The position numbers and the translations under genes are program-made. DNA of 64,000 nucleotides from Escherichia phage vB_EcoM_ASO1B. This document shows, piece after piece, positions 12,602 to 55,060 of the stretch (within the stretch, counting starts at the first letter, position 1; each line of letters starts with the position of its first letter). The stretch lies in sequence record MZ726792.1. One strand, written 5' to 3'. The notes beneath the pieces are model-generated. The model saw only the letters and a list, made by a program, of their open reading frames with translations. It had not been told where the DNA came from and did not search any database.

Positions 12602-12835
12602 ATGCTTACAACCGTTTATCTCATCCTCTCAATTTGTAATGGCCATTCATGTGACTTTAAAGGGCTTGAAGAGTTTACAGGAAGTAAAGAAAATGCTATT
12701 CAAGTTTGCCAGATAGCAAGGCAAGACTATCCCGCCAGTGATGATATACAATGTTACTTTAAGACAGAAGATGACGACGGAATTTATTTCGACAGTGTTG
12801 ACGGTCAATATGAAATTATCATTGAAAAAGACTAG
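12602..12835 (+). CDS. hypothetical small protein
   Basis: 77-aa ORF. Confidence 0.45.
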   Translation: MLTTVYLILSICNGHSCDFKGLEEFTGSKENAIQVCQIARQDYPASDDIQCYFKTEDDDGIYFDSVDGQYEIIIEKD

Positions 12836-12927
12836 ACAAGCCTGATAAAAGTCTGTAAATTGTCAATCAACGGGGAGGGAATGACCTTCCCCACTAAGTA
12901 AAGTCCTTAAACTAGGAGATTCTAAAA
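12833..12927 (+). promoter_or_regulatory. PeSL-like cassette (-10 TAAATT + hairpin + SD)
   Basis: -10 12856-12861; hairpin 12872-12892; SD AGGAG. Confidence 0.55.
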
Positions 12928-13269
12928 ATGGCTTATGTAACCATAATTACCGATAAAGCTGGCGCATCTTGGTCAACTCAGGTTAGTGATAAGATGTCAC
13001 CTATGCAGTGCCTAAAATACTTTGAACAGTGGAACAAAGGCGAGGACACAAGCCCCTTTCAAGTGATGCAGATTATCCATGTAGACAACGAAGGGAATAA
13101 AACGACCTTGAACAGTGAATACTACGCAAGCCGTTTTGAAACGAGAAGTAAAACAATGAAGCTTTTACGTGAATCCGGTTATGCCCATATCGCCGCGTTA
13201 ATCTGGGATGACCTGCTAAAAAGTCAGCGTATTAGCTATGTAAAGCCTGAAAAAATATTCATCAGTTAA
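12928..13269 (+). CDS. hypothetical protein
   Basis: 113-aa ORF. Confidence 0.55.
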   Translation: MAYVTIITDKAGASWSTQVSDKMSPMQCLKYFEQWNKGEDTSPFQVMQIIHVDNEGNKTTLNSEYYASRFETRSKTMKLLRESGYAHIAALIWDDLLKSQRISYVKPEKIFIS

Positions 13270-13330: not shown

Positions 13331-13421
13331 TGTTCGAGGGGGTTTATCTAAAAGGGATTCACTTAAAAGATTCTTTATAGATAAGCTCAAAAAATTACTT
13401 GCAATCAACTATCAAAACAAG

Positions 13422-13489
13422 TAAATTACTAATCAACGGGAAGGCAATAACCTCCCCACTAAATAAAGTCCTAAACTGGAGATTCTAAA
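13422..13489 (+). promoter_or_regulatory. PeSL-like cassette with covarying hairpin
   Basis: -10 TAAATT 13422-13427; hairpin GGGAAGG-CAATAA-CCTCCCC 13438-13457. Confidence 0.55.
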
Positions 13490-14020
13490 ATGAACAAATT
13501 TCAAGCTATCAACTTCATTCGTTCAAATACTGTAATGTCTAAGCCTGTAAAAGATACATACGAATTCCGTTGTAATGGGGTACATTTCGCAACAATCACC
13601 AAATCAGAAAACGGGACTTATTACGTTCATCGTCGTAATGTTTACACTGTTGTAGTCTCTCACTTTATGCAAGCTGTAGCGGAATTATTACCGTTATTCT
13701 TAGAGATTTACTTAGATGAGTGTAAAAACGTTCACAACCACGTTAAAAACCTTTTAAACGGTTATAAAATGGCTTATGAACGTTCTATCAAGTCCTTAAA
13801 CAAGTTCTATAAAGCCCCTGAAAACTCTGTTGCTTCAGCCTATGGCGTAGGCGGTTGGACTGTTAGTCTCTTCGAAGTGGAAGAAATCGAGCTTTACGAC
13901 CATCGACCTAACGGTTACTCTAAGACTCTCGGTGAAGGTTTAACGTTCAATATCAAGAACTTAGAAAAAACTTTAAAAGATATTGAAAAAGATATTGACG
14001 AGACAATAAAAAGTCTGTAA
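13490..14020 (+). CDS. hypothetical protein
   Basis: 176-aa ORF. Confidence 0.55.
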   Translation: MNKFQAINFIRSNTVMSKPVKDTYEFRCNGVHFATITKSENGTYYVHRRNVYTVVVSHFMQAVAELLPLFLEIYLDECKNVHNHVKNLLNGYKMAYERSIKSLNKFYKAPENSVASAYGVGGWTVSLFEVEEIELYDHRPNGYSKTLGEGLTFNIKNLEKTLKDIEKDIDETIKSL

Positions 14021-14086
14021 ATTGTCAATCAACGGGGAGGGAATGACCTTCCCCACTAAATAAAGTCCTAAACTGGAGTTATCAAG
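13995..14086 (+). promoter_or_regulatory. PeSL-like cassette (TTGACG-17-TAAATT + hairpin)
   Basis: -35 13995-14000, -10 14018-14023, hairpin 14034-14054; promoter lies in 3' end of upstream gene. Confidence 0.55.
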
Positions 14087-14350
14087 ATGGAAAACGTAGA
14101 ATTAACCACACTTTTACAAATTGCAACTGACAAAGAAGATGTAGCACTGTTTCACCGTATCGAAAGCGATTTATTCAATGGTGAAATCATCAAAGAATCT
14201 TATGAAGTTGTCGGATTCAAAGATGGTAAAGCGTTTGGCTTTTTTGACCTCGACAAAGGCAACGCTGTCACAAAGTATGATGTTGTATCTTGTGAGATTC
14301 TTACAAAATACAACGAAAAAAGGCTTGCAACATACGCCAATATACAGTAA
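14087..14350 (+). CDS. hypothetical protein
   Basis: 87-aa ORF. Confidence 0.5.
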   Translation: MENVELTTLLQIATDKEDVALFHRIESDLFNGEIIKESYEVVGFKDGKAFGFFDLDKGNAVTKYDVVSCEILTKYNEKRLATYANIQ

Positions 14351-14416
14351 ATTACTAATCAACGGGAGGCGATAACCTCCCCACTAAATAAAACCCTTAA
14401 ACTAGGAGATTCAAAA
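14348..14416 (+). promoter_or_regulatory. PeSL-like cassette with covarying hairpin
   Basis: -10 TAAATT 14348-14353; hairpin GGGAGG-CGATAA-CCTCCC 14364-14381. Confidence 0.55.
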
Positions 14417-14665
14417 ATGGCAACTATCCGCGCTACTGTCAATGCCTATGGCTGTTATACTCTGGACGTTAAATTTGATATTGGTGGAACTGATGAGTGT
14501 TTTTCATTAGTGAAGACAGTTATCAAACAAGTTATTCCAGATTATAACCCTACTGATGACTTCTGGAAAGATGCTGTAAAAGAGGCATTAAACGACGAGC
14601 ATCACTATCATTACTGGGGTGACTTGATTGTTTCCCTGTACTACAATAAACAAGGTTACAACTAA
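14417..14665 (+). CDS. hypothetical protein
   Basis: 82-aa ORF, last gene of rightward array. Confidence 0.5.
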   Translation: MATIRATVNAYGCYTLDVKFDIGGTDECFSLVKTVIKQVIPDYNPTDDFWKDAVKEALNDEHHYHYWGDLIVSLYYNKQGYN

Positions 14666-14704
14666 TCGACGCAACGGGGCTAAATAGCCCCAGATACCTC
14701 AACA

Positions 14705-14728
14705 GCCCCTATTTAAAGGGGCTTTTTT
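14705..14728 (+). terminator. rho-independent terminator ending rightward early array
   Basis: GCCCCT-ATTTAA-AGGGGC hairpin plus T6; second hairpin GGGGCT-AAAT-AGCCCC at 14676-14691. Confidence 0.65.
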
Positions 14729-14739
14729 ACGTCTATTGA

Positions 14740-16265
14740 ATCCTTATACAATCCCTTTCCAGAATCTTATCAGACCTTAAAAGCAATAACTCTATAGTCT
14801 ACTCTATAACCTCTTATCAAATCAACTTAAATAAAAGCCAATAACCCCCAGAAAGGGGATGGCCCATTTAAACGCTCTATAAAGCTCTATAACAGCCTTA
14901 TCAACCTAACTTAAGGGATTGCATTAACCAACCTTAAAAAGCTCTTTACAGGGCTTTATAGAGACTTAAAAGAATCTTATAAGGGTGTAAGCTTTATCAT
15001 CTCGTTAGTATCTTGTGAATAACTAAAAAGGGCTTGTTAGTGTCTTAAAAGTATGTTATAGGGGCTTAAAAGTTACTTCAAAGTTACGTAAAAGGGGCTA
15101 TAAAGTTACGTAAATGCTAGCCCCCTTAACATTTTCTTAACAATTTCTTAACAATCCCTACATAGTTATGCTTTTAAGGCACTTGTTAGCAACTTGTTAG
15201 CCCCTTGTTAAATCTCTGTTAAGACCACGTAAAAGCCTTGTAAGAACCTTTGACATAGCCTTAAAAGCCCCTGTAAAGCCCTATAAAGAGGTATCTGTAC
15301 AGTTGGGGGGTAAATACTAGGAAGAGATTTAAAAGAGGCTATAAAGAGCTATAGAGGGCTTTTAAGAGGTATGTTTAAGGAATCACTAAGAAAGGAAAGG
15401 GAACGATAAGAAAAGAGTAGTGACCTTGTTAATAGCTTGTTAAAAAGATTAAACACTTGTTAGAGACTTGTTAATTATCTTAACAAAATAACTCTTAAAA
15501 ATTAACTTGTTAGCTATTGTTAGTCATCTGTTAAGATTCTGTAAAGTCCATGTATCAACTGTTAAGAAACTGTTAAGCCCTTGTTAGTTCTTTTAAGAAT
15601 CTGTTAAGACCTATGAAGAGTTGTTAAGAAGGTGTTAGAACTGTTAAGAGATTGTTAAGGATATTTTAAAATTTTGCAAAGTACTTGTAAGGGAGCTGTT
15701 AAGGGCTACCAAGCAGATATACATCCTATTCAGATATTTTTGAGTTCCTTCAAAGACCCTAAAAAATGACTTGATAACCCTATTTTATAAAAATTTTAAA
15801 ATTCTGAATAATTACCTATACAGTCTTCTAAAAATACAGGCATAAACAGGCTTATAAGATACCTTGTTAGTACCGTGTTAGACCTTGTGAGATAAGGCCT
15901 GTAAAGATATTCCTGTTAAGTTTGTTAAAACAGTCTATATAGAGGCTTAGTAATACCTAGTGAACACCTATAGAGGGTATCATAGCTTACCTAGAGATTA
16001 AGAGGTGTATAGGAGCTTCTAAGAGGGTGTAGAGAGATGGTTAAGGTGATTGTATAGGCTGTTAAGAAGGCTTGTTAGAAGAGTGTTTAGAAGGCTTGTT
16101 AGAAGGGCTATACAGAGGGCTATTAAGACCACTAGATAGTTACTAAGATACTATATAGTACTATATAACTATATATAGAGAGTAAGATTAAGAAGGTTGT
16201 TAAGAAGGGTAGATATTTTGTTCACATATGATGGTGACCCAGAGGTTGGGACAACCGATAAAATT
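14740..16265. repeat. ORF-free repeat-dense zone (iteron-like yTGTTArG arrays, direct repeats, TATA-rich micro-repeats)
   Basis: no ORF >=60 aa on either strand; >20 copies of CTTGTTAG/CTGTTAAG-like motif within 15130-15680 and 16060-16110; 15-bp direct repeat AAGGCTTGTTAGAAG x2; ACTATATA x3 near 16150. Confidence 0.7.
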
Positions 16266-16275
16266 TTATAAAAAT

Positions 16276-16300
16276 TAAAAAGCCCCCAATTAAGGAGGCT
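16276..16300 (-). terminator. rho-independent terminator of leftward block
   Basis: on minus strand GCCTCC-TTAATT-GGGGGC followed by T5. Confidence 0.55.
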
Positions 16301-16311
16301 CTTAAGATATT

Positions 16312-16905
16312 TTAAATCAGTGTTTCCAGAACTGTTTTTAATGATGACTTGGTTGTCTGATAAAAATGAGTAAATCCATTGTTGTTATCGAATATCTGCA
16401 TCATAACAGCATCTCCCTTGATTGGGTACACTCGGATATCATAGTGAAACCCATTAAAGACACAAGAACCACTACAGAATGCTCTAAAGTCATCCACTGA
16501 GATGTACTCTTCATGACCTGTGATTTTTATACAAACACCTTTACTCGGTCTCTTAGGGTTGATATCTTCCATCACAGACATACTCTGTCCACCAAGAGAT
16601 ACCATAGTGACCACTTTACGGTTCTTCTGTTTAAAGTACATCTTAACTTTCTGCAAAGTGTCTTCATAGAACGGATAAGACCTTTCTACAAAGATTCCTT
16701 CAAGTGGCTCTTTACCATTTTCAACTTCTCTGTTATGCCGTACTGCAAAGATAATTTGTTCGAACCAGTCAAGATTTTCTTCGGAGAGTGCTTCCCGAAT
16801 ATCACTCCAATCAAGAACTAGATAGTTACCTTCAACTTCTTTTAAGTTATCTTTTTCCATATCTATCACACCATTATCGTAAAACTTGGTAAGCTGGAAC
16901 TGCAA
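16312..16905 (-). CDS. hypothetical protein
   Basis: 197-aa ORF. Confidence 0.5.
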   Translation of the reverse strand: MQFQLTKFYDNGVIDMEKDNLKEVEGNYLVLDWSDIREALSEENLDWFEQIIFAVRHNREVENGKEPLEGIFVERSYPFYEDTLQKVKMYFKQKNRKVVTMVSLGGQSMSVMEDINPKRPSKGVCIKITGHEEYISVDDFRAFCSGSCVFNGFHYDIRVYPIKGDAVMMQIFDNNNGFTHFYQTTKSSLKTVLETLI

Positions 16906-17338
16906 ACTTGTTGCCGTTGTTCTTAATGAGGTCTTCTTCTGTTACTAAGAATGTAATCCCACACAAGTGTGTGTATTGGCTATCATACTCAAATATTTTA
17001 AGTAAGTATTTACCATCGTGATAAACAGATTCTACTACACCTTTTGCAACAATCTTTCCAGTCTTGAAATCTTTAAGAGGGTATACATTACCAACTTTAG
17101 GGGCTGTTTTCATCTCAGGTTCTTTTAGTTTCTCACTAACTTCTACATCACCTAGTAAGTGAGAACTCTCAAACGCTACATATTGCATATAAGCTTCTGA
17201 GCATTCCCAGATAAAACAATGTACAAGAATCTTAGCAGCATGTCTTGAGCAATTCAACTTATCACAAATTTCTTTGTACATTTCATCTTTAGTTGAGTTG
17301 TCAAGCATTGCTTTTCGAACTGTTTCTTTAACTTTCAT
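16874..17338 (-). CDS. hypothetical protein
   Basis: 154-aa ORF. Confidence 0.5.
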   Translation of the reverse strand: MKVKETVRKAMLDNSTKDEMYKEICDKLNCSRHAAKILVHCFIWECSEAYMQYVAFESSHLLGDVEVSEKLKEPEMKTAPKVGNVYPLKDFKTGKIVAKGVVESVYHDGKYLLKIFEYDSQYTHLCGITFLVTEEDLIKNNGNKFAVPAYQVLR

Positions 17339-17756
17339 AAGCTCTCCGAATAACTCTATTAAGCATCTCTAAAGTCAGCTTTCCAGATTCTAAATGTGGC
17401 ATAACAAGCTTTAAAGCTTTTTCAACATCATGCACAACATCTATTATACCTTCTTCATAGGCTTCTACAAGGATATCTTTTACGTTTTGTGATTTACCTT
17501 TTTGTGGTATCACTAGACGCATATCAAACTCATTTGCTTGAGGATGGTTCTTACCACGCCAGAAACCGTCCTTATCAAAGCTTATAAAATTATCCTCATT
17601 AAAATTAATACCACAAACAACAAACTTATCTAGCACTATGCAGTTGAGAGGGTAATCATCACTTGCATCATTCATTCCAAGAAACTTAACAGTAGCTATA
17701 TACCTCTGTGTCTTTGCATCTACAATGTCAAGTTCTTTACCTATGTACTCTTTCAT
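17328..17756 (-). CDS. hypothetical protein
   Basis: 142-aa ORF. Confidence 0.5.
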   Translation of the reverse strand: MKEYIGKELDIVDAKTQRYIATVKFLGMNDASDDYPLNCIVLDKFVVCGINFNEDNFISFDKDGFWRGKNHPQANEFDMRLVIPQKGKSQNVKDILVEAYEEGIIDVVHDVEKALKLVMPHLESGKLTLEMLNRVIRRAYES

Positions 17757-17759
17757 CTC

Positions 17760-18032
17760 TTAAATCCTATCAATTTGAAACTCTTCAGGTAACTCAGCCA
17801 CCACTTTTAAATAGTAAGCATCAGAGATTGTATGCTTTGTCTCATAGCTACCATTCTTAATCCAGTTATAATTTTCTGGTATTCCATCATCATTACAAAA
17901 ACCTGAGTACATAATTGCTCTGTGGATTATATTTTTATTAGAGTATGCAACATCTACAATATAGTATGTTTTTTCTTTCCAACCACCTTCAGGTTTACAA
18001 ATACCTGAGATACCCTCTAATTCTGGTGTCAT
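17760..18032 (-). CDS. hypothetical protein
   Basis: 90-aa ORF. Confidence 0.5.
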   Translation of the reverse strand: MTPELEGISGICKPEGGWKEKTYYIVDVAYSNKNIIHRAIMYSGFCNDDGIPENYNWIKNGSYETKHTISDAYYLKVVAELPEEFQIDRI

Positions 18033-54981: not shown

Positions 54982-55060
54982 TCCCTTGTTGACTGATTGT
55001 TAAGATGGTGTTAATATTCTTTATGGGTATTCTCACCATCTTGGCTGATGAGGTGATTAA

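Follow-up and report, generated by a model that had tools for sequence, protein, structure and literature searches.

The subject of this analysis is a gene-free, repeat-rich zone in the genome of Escherichia phage vB_EcoM_ASO1B (MZ726792.1), a virulent Felixounavirus; the stretch of 64,000 nucleotides that was analysed is referred to as the window. The longest interval of the window without an open reading frame (ORF) of at least 60 aa on either strand was found at 14666-16311 (1646 bp), the runner-up being an interval of 668 bp in the tRNA cluster. A terminator scan showed that each edge of this zone carries a Rho-independent terminator. The left one (14704..14733, + strand, hairpin 14704-14723) ends the rightward, early gene cluster and is kept in all aligned relatives, and the right one (16270..16303, − strand, hairpin 16303-16278) ends the leftward gene cluster; both are annotated in the record of Escherichia phage vB_EcoM_ASO1A (MZ726791.1, Felixounavirus). 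The size of the interval and the inward-facing hairpins at both edges confirm a preliminary description of this DNA, which had reported a repeat-dense zone without ORFs between convergent terminators. At 14700-16300 the zone matches ASO1A with 100% identity, and its identity to some 250 Felix O1-like phages is about 90%. Identity between the window and MZ726791.1 is about 98% over 8.7-52 kb and 94-96% beyond 54.8 kb, reaching 100% only in the zone; from about 22.1 kb onward the coordinates are shifted by +243 bp, and stretches near 52.2, 54.7 and 59.4-62.4 kb do not align.

The short core TGTTAR occurs 33 times in the zone, 29 times on the + strand and four times on the − strand, compared with 2.0 copies per kb in the rest of the window. 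The segment 15120-15710 holds 24 of these cores (40/kb, a 20-fold enrichment), 15711-16269 holds eight and 14734-15119 one. The strict pattern yTGTTArG was found 15 times, with 12 copies at 15120-15710 and three in the right flank, against 0.32 per kb elsewhere, so that the more than 20 copies previously ascribed to it are reached by the core TGTTAR and not by the strict pattern. Both orientations are present as claimed, but in a lopsided manner, three of the four reverse cores being clustered at 15126-15153. The hexamer TGTTAA was observed 13 times in 15120-15710 where 0.41 copies are expected. Autocorrelation revealed a zone-wide periodicity of about 11 bp (z = 12.1 at lag 11 and 6.5 at lag 22; z = 10.7 at lag 11 within 15120-15710), and no lag-11 signal appeared in the coding controls. 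TGTTAA pairs at 11-bp distance were also seen outside the zone, at 54998/55009 and 57676/57687. The remaining repeats listed in the preliminary description are present as well, namely a 15-bp direct repeat (AAGGCTTGTTAGAAG at 16067 and 16091), tandem ACTATATA units at 16150, 16160 and 16168, and CTATAAAGAG boxes at 15281 and 15339.

Homology to terminal repeats of Felix O1-like phages

The motif-dense segment 15120..15710 (591 bp, + strand), found once in the window, corresponds by homology to the direct terminal repeat (DTR) of related phages, a sequence that each virion chromosome carries at its two ends and each concatemer unit contains once. In the record of phage Pr103Blw a 'short direct terminal repeat' is annotated at 1-581 and 87841-88421, the 581 bp being identical at both ends, and in Ro111lw the first 613 bp equal the last 613 bp. 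Both repeats aligned over their full length to exactly 15120-15710, with 89% identity. A DTR annotation in UAB_69, from the UAB_Phi87 laboratory, lies at the homologous place, at most 2 bp off. The record ends agree with these limits: CRP22, Ro111lw and Pr103Blw start with GCCCCCTTAACA, the window bases at 15120, whereas Ro111lw and Pr103Blw end at ...GGGCTACC, the window bases at 15710, and ECP2307, deposited in reverse orientation, starts at that limit. Many further records also begin at a DTR limit. Unique, non-permuted ends are thus seen in the relatives, in which four independent records have identical first or last bases.

Published data on the relatives give the same picture of the ends. 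PhageTerm yielded a DTR of 613 bp in Ro111lw (PMC6454146) and of 581 bp in Pr103Blw (PMC8303462), and in UAB_Phi87 the DTR was sized at 608 bp by Bal31 digestion, SpeI mapping and run-off sequencing (PMC4837284). In the scheme of Casjens & Gilcrease, which PMC4837284 lists, short exact direct terminal repeats (T7-type ends) form class iii. The homologous segment of UAB_Phi87 lies between the only two nearby SpeI sites and fits the two Bal31-sensitive fragments to about 100 bp. The SpeI fragments published for this phage (JN225449.1, locus L011, 13014-19582) are inconsistent with a 608-bp DTR at the homologous limits, and the length of its record is 87,603 bp, compared with 87,669 bp given in the paper.

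The same sequence of a few hundred base pairs was found at both genome ends in close relatives, not in vB_EcoM_ASO1B itself. The genome unit holds one DTR copy, with one match in the window and one place in MZ726791.1, and the repeat appears once and internally because the record from which the annotation was taken is opened at rIIA. Since the DTRs and the record ends of the relatives coincide with 15120-15710, the motif-dense stretch is identified, by homology, as the DTR of a Felix O1-type phage. The preliminary description had offered three interpretations of the zone, a replication origin, a packaging or terminal-repeat boundary and a partition-like site. One of the three, the terminal repeat, proved right: the comparison with related phages that it had suggested showed the same zone as a terminal repeat at their record ends, with end-to-end homology over 15120-15710. 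The other two have little or no support and are taken up below.

Contig breaks at about 14367 in several records were considered as genome ends and rejected, as they fall on a repeated intergenic cassette. This cassette, a promoter-like element plus a hairpin, recurs between small early genes at about 12821-12933, 13421-13492, 14017-14090 and 14342-14427. It corresponds to DR_2/3/5 of wV8 and the '57-bp repeats' of Felix O1, and shares the words CTTTACA and CTTAAAAG with the left flank of the zone. In addition, a Felix O1-type DTR at 89% identity was found at 135884-136463 of the 147-kb record of Staphylococcus phage SA1 (GU169904.1), which suggests that this record is a chimeric or mixed assembly.

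Anatomy and conservation of the repeat

To assess the conservation of individual elements, 22 distinct sequences of the zone were aligned, which came from GenBank and IMG/VR loci of Felixounavirus, Mooglevirus and Suspvirus. The DTR carries at its left edge three reverse cores at 11-bp spacing (15123..15153, − strand, cores at 15126, 15137 and 15148), present in 18-22 of the 22 genomes; in some relatives this unit is longer by 11 or 22 bp. The exact motif TGTTAAGGG has only two copies in 64 kb, at 15123-15131 (−) and 15697-15705 (+), and these are the outermost motifs of the DTR, both facing outward at its limits. The second copy (15697..15705, + strand) lies 5 nt inside the right limit, and its TGTTAR core is kept in 21 of the 22 genomes.

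From 15171 onward all cores but one point rightward, forming three arrays. Array A (15171..15222, + strand), recognised by motif scan and TRF, comprises five units at 11-bp spacing, CTTTTAAGGCA, CTTGTTAGCAA, CTTGTTAGCCC, CTTGTTAAATCT and CTGTTAAG, and whole units of it are missing in relatives as 11- or 22-bp deletions. It is followed by a DTR centre without TGTTAR (15230..15420, + strand, conservation 0.86-0.95), which contains words of the CTTGTAAG, CTGTAAAG and CTATAAAG types, a G-run and a conserved purine-rich tract at 15383-15420. Array B (15424..15537, + strand) has TGTTAR at 15427, 15438, 15458, 15469, 15508, 15518 and 15529 and one reverse core at 15480; its cores occur in 15-22 of the 22 genomes. 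Array C (15557..15659, + strand) is the densest, with about ten 11-bp units (TRF period 11, 10 copies, consensus AACTGTTAAG), and ends 50 bp before the right limit. Most of its cores are conserved over the three genera and its spacers are variable.

Beyond array C, a conserved ATTTTAAAAT palindrome and TTTTGCAAAG box lie 30-48 bp inside the right limit (15663..15681), the latter box being found also in Kolesnikvirus. Directly outside the right limit is a AAGCAGATATACA box (15711..15723, + strand), which is unique in the window, near-invariant in Felixouna-, Moogle- and Suspvirus, and recognisable in Kolesnikvirus. With a slash marking each limit, the boundary boxes read ...GCTA/GCCCCCTTAACA on the left and TGTTAAGGGCTACC/AAGCAGATATACA on the right, and these boundary sequences are almost invariant. 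Two further candidates at the limits were rejected: the inverted repeat GGGGC...GCCCC across the left limit lacks conservation, and a cut-site word common to both limits ('GCTA' or 'C/WAGCA') is too short and not conserved in Suspvirus.

The two non-coding flanks differ in their words. In packaged DNA the left flank (14734..15119, 386 bp) would stand just inside the right-end DTR copy. It carries the words CTTAAAAG, CTATAAAG and CTCTATA in a phase of about 11 bp (lag-11 z = 5.9), with CTTAAA present six times against 0.27 expected and CTCTAT four times against 0.08, and a single TGTTAR. A small G+C hairpin followed by a T-rich tail was detected in it by terminator scan (14844..14860, − strand, DNA fold z = −1.9); its stem varies among the relatives (CCCCCAGAAAGGGG vs CCCGAAAGGG in the alignment) and the hairpin is kept. 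Across the whole window 32 copies of CTTAAAAG were counted where 5.2 are expected; most lie on the coding strand, and they are often found within genes. The right flank (15711..16269, 559 bp, conservation 0.92), which would stand just inside the left-end DTR copy, contains eight TGTTAR cores, an 88% A+T patch at 15780-15819, a 24-bp duplication at 16060-16105 that includes AAGGCTTGTTAGAAG twice, and the ACTATATA units, which are of TATATA type, at 16150-16175. When both limits, the A+T patch and the internal hairpin were folded as single strands, neither limit showed significant structure.

Column conservation is about 0.9 across the zone (mean 0.89 in the left flank). In Moogle- and Suspvirus the zone keeps an identity of 77-79%, compared with an amino-acid identity of 49-55% for the adjacent protein (16312-16860). 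Within the DTR, the TGTTAR core columns are conserved at 0.965 against 0.87-0.88 for the other columns (permutation p < 0.0002). Indels of at least 5 bp peak at 11 bp (16 events) and 22 bp (seven events), and the DTR-homologous lengths of 47 records fall only into the classes 569-571, 578-582, 589-592, 601-603 and 611-614 bp.

Insertions of two other kinds were observed among the relatives. A 22-bp near-palindromic insert, AATTGGTATTGTTACCAATCCC, absent from the window, lies in the DTR of some relatives at four different positions (among others, locus L003 364-379, L007 1892-1907, L024 855-870 and 959-974, and L025 2766-2781 (−)). It is present in two copies in one case and inverted in one, and was found nowhere else in the fetched loci. 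Exactly two helical turns long, it may represent a very small mobile or gene-conversion unit. Hairpin-like inserts of the ATGAGRTAGATTCTAYCGAATC type, about 24-29 bp long, stand at differing positions of the zone, namely after the window-equivalent positions 15725 and about 16290 in Moogle (locus L013), after 15031 in UAB_69 and after 15796 in SUSP1.

The boundary boxes also served to predict the genome ends in a more distant genus. Erwinia phage phiEa21-4 (Kolesnikvirus, 43% G+C) is not among the 255 megablast matches to the zone, and Kolesnikvirus was reached by synteny because the neighbouring gene has no homologue outside the three genera. In phiEa21-4 (locus L049), the syntenic gene-poor zone at 16472-17912 contains TGTTAA 17 times against 0.7 expected, has a lag-11 z of 8.7 and shows recognisable boundary boxes. 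The DTR predicted from these boxes is at about 17024-17465, and the Kolesnikvirus records with a repeat at both ends begin there; in phage M7 the terminal repeat is exact and 444 bp long, TTAGCCAC...CCACTAA, and agrees with the phiEa21-4-based prediction within 3 nt. The boxes thus placed the ends within 3 nt in a genus that is no longer alignable at the DNA level. The left junction flank of phiEa21-4 (16580-16920) carries an 11-bp phased array of another word, CTTCTAAG, with TTCTAA present 12 times against 0.64 expected; therefore, the flank arrays have diverged between genera and the DTR word has not.

Proposed packaging role and alternative explanations

In T7 and other phages with short DTRs, it is through the repeat that replicated genomes can be joined into concatemers. 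A concatemer contains one repeat copy per genome, and the terminase must make two fixed ends with the repeat duplicated (PMC5000459). We consider it quite probable that the zone is such a concatemer junction, at which the linear virion chromosome starts and ends, and that the arrays are putative sites of terminase loading or end processing. The junction is free of genes because both flanking clusters, which are transcribed towards the DTR, stop at the terminators. The terminase would cut at both limits with duplication of the repeat, giving two copies per packaged genome. The helix-phased TGTTAAG cores would bind a recognition protein or the terminase, and the bound protein, lying along one face of the DNA or wrapping it, would position cutting at the two conserved boundary boxes. 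Gain and loss of units by slippage or out-of-register pairing would shift the repeat length in 11-bp steps. The large terminase subunit TerL, which is expected to make the cuts at the DTR limits, is encoded at 32070..33686 (+ strand; Terminase_6N/6C and phrog_979 matches). Judged from these sequence features, the TGTTAAG arrays probably guide the DNA-packaging machinery, and the conservation of cores over spacers, the helical phase and the conserved boundary boxes lend indirect support to a putative terminase recognition site.

A more specific version, which we advance only tentatively, is that throughout the Ounavirinae the DTR acts as a dedicated platform for a nucleoprotein complex. An as yet unrecognised end-recognition protein would be loaded at some two dozen TGTTAAG sites lying on one side of the helix, the boundary boxes would specify the cuts, and the distance between the cuts would amount to whole helical turns. 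The lengths would then change only in 11-bp steps, because the inter-cut distance is held to whole turns, and the loaded protein would be a functional small terminase without detectable homology.

Several observations weigh against the packaging role and against the placement of the ends. The ends of vB_EcoM_ASO1B were placed by homology only, depositors disagree by 2-3 nt at each DTR limit, and the SpeI end fragments published for UAB_Phi87 (4322 and 2819 bp) depart by about 100 bp from the lengths that the homologous limits would give (4431 and 2751 bp). No protein is known to bind TGTTAR cores, and the Pfam/PHROG search recognised no small terminase subunit; a 66-aa ORF upstream of TerL (31863-32063) was rejected as a candidate, being acidic, of no known function and with only near-identical relatives. 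The two boundary sequences share a short inverted match only and stand at 12 and 14 nt from the motif start, and single-strand folding compared with shuffles gave no hairpin signal at the DTR limits. Furthermore, the TGTTAR cores of the right flank are no better conserved than their surroundings, and slippage alone could yield the 11-bp quantisation.

The rival that survives best, although we regard it as unlikely, is a replication origin in which a phage or host initiator binds the TGTTAAG repeats and melts the A+T patch, either instead of or besides a DTR role. The dense one-way repeats in helical phase, the location of the 88% A+T patch (15780-15819) 70 bp past the right DTR limit, a DnaA-box match at 15014 and the very conservation of this non-coding DNA would suit such an origin, and replication origins of T7 are generally known to lie near the ends, phiOL and phiOR being seen in the T7 sequence. 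However, no initiator-like gene was found among the seven nearest neighbour proteins, which have no Pfam match and hit PHROGs of unknown function only, and the zone has a single DnaA box and no IHF site. The word 'iteron-like' in the preliminary description applies as a loose resemblance, since the units are 7-bp cores at 11-bp spacing and not 17-22-bp iterons. GC skew, which it had proposed as a check, showed the zone at a local maximum of the cumulative curve that mirrors gene orientation, and not at a minimum. The position of the repeats is, moreover, already explained because they coincide exactly with the DTR. The origin suggested for the zone is thus left without specific support.

Slightly less probable still is that the repeats bind no protein, being a slippage-prone array that is tolerated in a gene-free junction and kept similar by recombination between the DTR copies. 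The indels are indeed whole units, lengths differ between close relatives, the right-flank cores are not specially conserved and, to our knowledge, a function of the analogous junction repeats of T7 was never established. Against this, cores exceed spacers in conservation inside the DTR at the significance given above, and the heptamer and its phasing persist in Kolesnikvirus, beyond the reach of megablast alignment, hence in four genera in all. The zone is also more conserved than the neighbouring gene, and both the orientation pattern and the boundary copies are conserved.

A partition or centromere-like site, or an array for a transcription or silencing factor such as an RNA polymerase decoy (TTAACA, the reverse complement of the core, resembles a −35 hexamer), is very improbable. 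The short sites are phased and the zone contains TTAACA-type promoter-like matches; their number is at the level of chance (16 vs 12.1 ± 3.7 expected), and the best candidate for a promoter inside the zone is broken by a 29-bp insertion in SUSP1. The phage is virulent, no ParA/ParB-like proteins were found among the neighbours, so that the partition site proposed earlier has nothing in its favour there, and no gene is placed for regulation. A decayed coding remnant, the outcome that the preliminary description had named as contrary to its view, or a non-coding RNA gene can practically be dismissed: some depositors called ORFs of 25-60 aa in the zone, but these differ between records, the 11-bp periodicity and a conservation better than that of the adjacent gene speak against this reading, folding near the limits is no better than in shuffles, and Rfam gave no match in 14400-16600, its sole sub-threshold hit being a chance match at the right terminator.

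The identity of the zone as a DTR will not surprise a phage specialist; in the Felix O1-like group both the DTR and its position were known before and are marked in a few records. Papers reporting the repeat give its length only and are silent on internal arrays and boundary boxes (PMC4837284, PMC6454146, PMC8303462). Nothing on the zone is said in the papers on Felix O1, VpaE1 and Moogle or in the annotation of wV8, the PhageMaP paper on Bas63 contains no data on it, and a literature search for TGTTAAG with 'terminal repeat' gave nothing relevant among the 10 of 59 matches listed. Apparently undescribed, as refinements of a known element, are the phased arrangement of TGTTAAG, the boundary copies that face outward, the length quanta of 11 bp and the conservation throughout the Ounavirinae. 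Many genomes of the Felix O1 type were deposited opened at rIIA, with the true ends unmarked within a 'gene desert'; with the boxes GCCCCCTTAACA... and ...GGGCTACC/AAGCAGATATACA, the physical ends can be located from sequence alone. Even for T7 it is poorly understood how a phage with a short DTR recognises its two cut sites and doubles the repeat, and the group offers delimited cis-elements (phased cores, an orientation switch and boundary boxes) in phages that can be engineered, such as Felix O1 and Bas63.

A separate observation concerns the window as a whole. GATC has no site in 1-64000, compared with 175 ± 11 expected from shuffles and about 213 from a Markov model. Other 4-bp palindromes are mildly depleted, and CTGCAG, ATGCAT, GGTACC and CCATGG have no site each against 9-23 expected.

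Comparison with known systems

The DTRs of the Felix O1-like phages UAB_Phi87, Ro111lw, Pr103Blw and UAB_69 share with the segment described here the locus, the limits GCCCCCTTAACA ... GGGCTACC, the flanking genes and the terminators, at 87-89% identity. The repeat of vB_EcoM_ASO1B differs from them in being single and unannotated in the window and in its length of 591 bp, which is one of the 11-bp length classes.

The iteron origins of plasmids and lambdoid phages resemble the zone in their direct repeats, a nearby A+T patch and one DnaA-box match. They are unlike it in that the unit here is far shorter, there is no adjacent initiator gene and the repeats coincide with mapped genome ends. Phased short sites recognised by the small terminase are known from the R sites of lambda cosB and from pacL-pacR of SPP1/SF6. 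As in the zone, several short sites in helical register adjoin the terminase cut site in these systems; they serve, however, cos or headful packaging with an identified small subunit, whereas here no such subunit is recognisable and two cuts 591 bp apart would be needed.

The closest mechanistic analogue is T7, even though the terminase lineages are unrelated (the enzyme here is a T4-type Terminase_6). The T7 junction contains 13 one-way copies of CCTAAAG in 760 bp spanning the 160-bp repeat (lag-13 z = 7.5). Its spacing is about 13 bp, compared with 11 bp in the zone, the repeat here is four times longer, and promoters and origins lie beside the T7 repeat where, in vB_EcoM_ASO1B, terminators end both sides. 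Like the zone, the T7 junction is largely gene-free, with only the small gene 19.5 on the right side, and both phages have a short exact DTR with many one-way copies of a 7-bp A/T-rich word inside the repeat and on either side of it.

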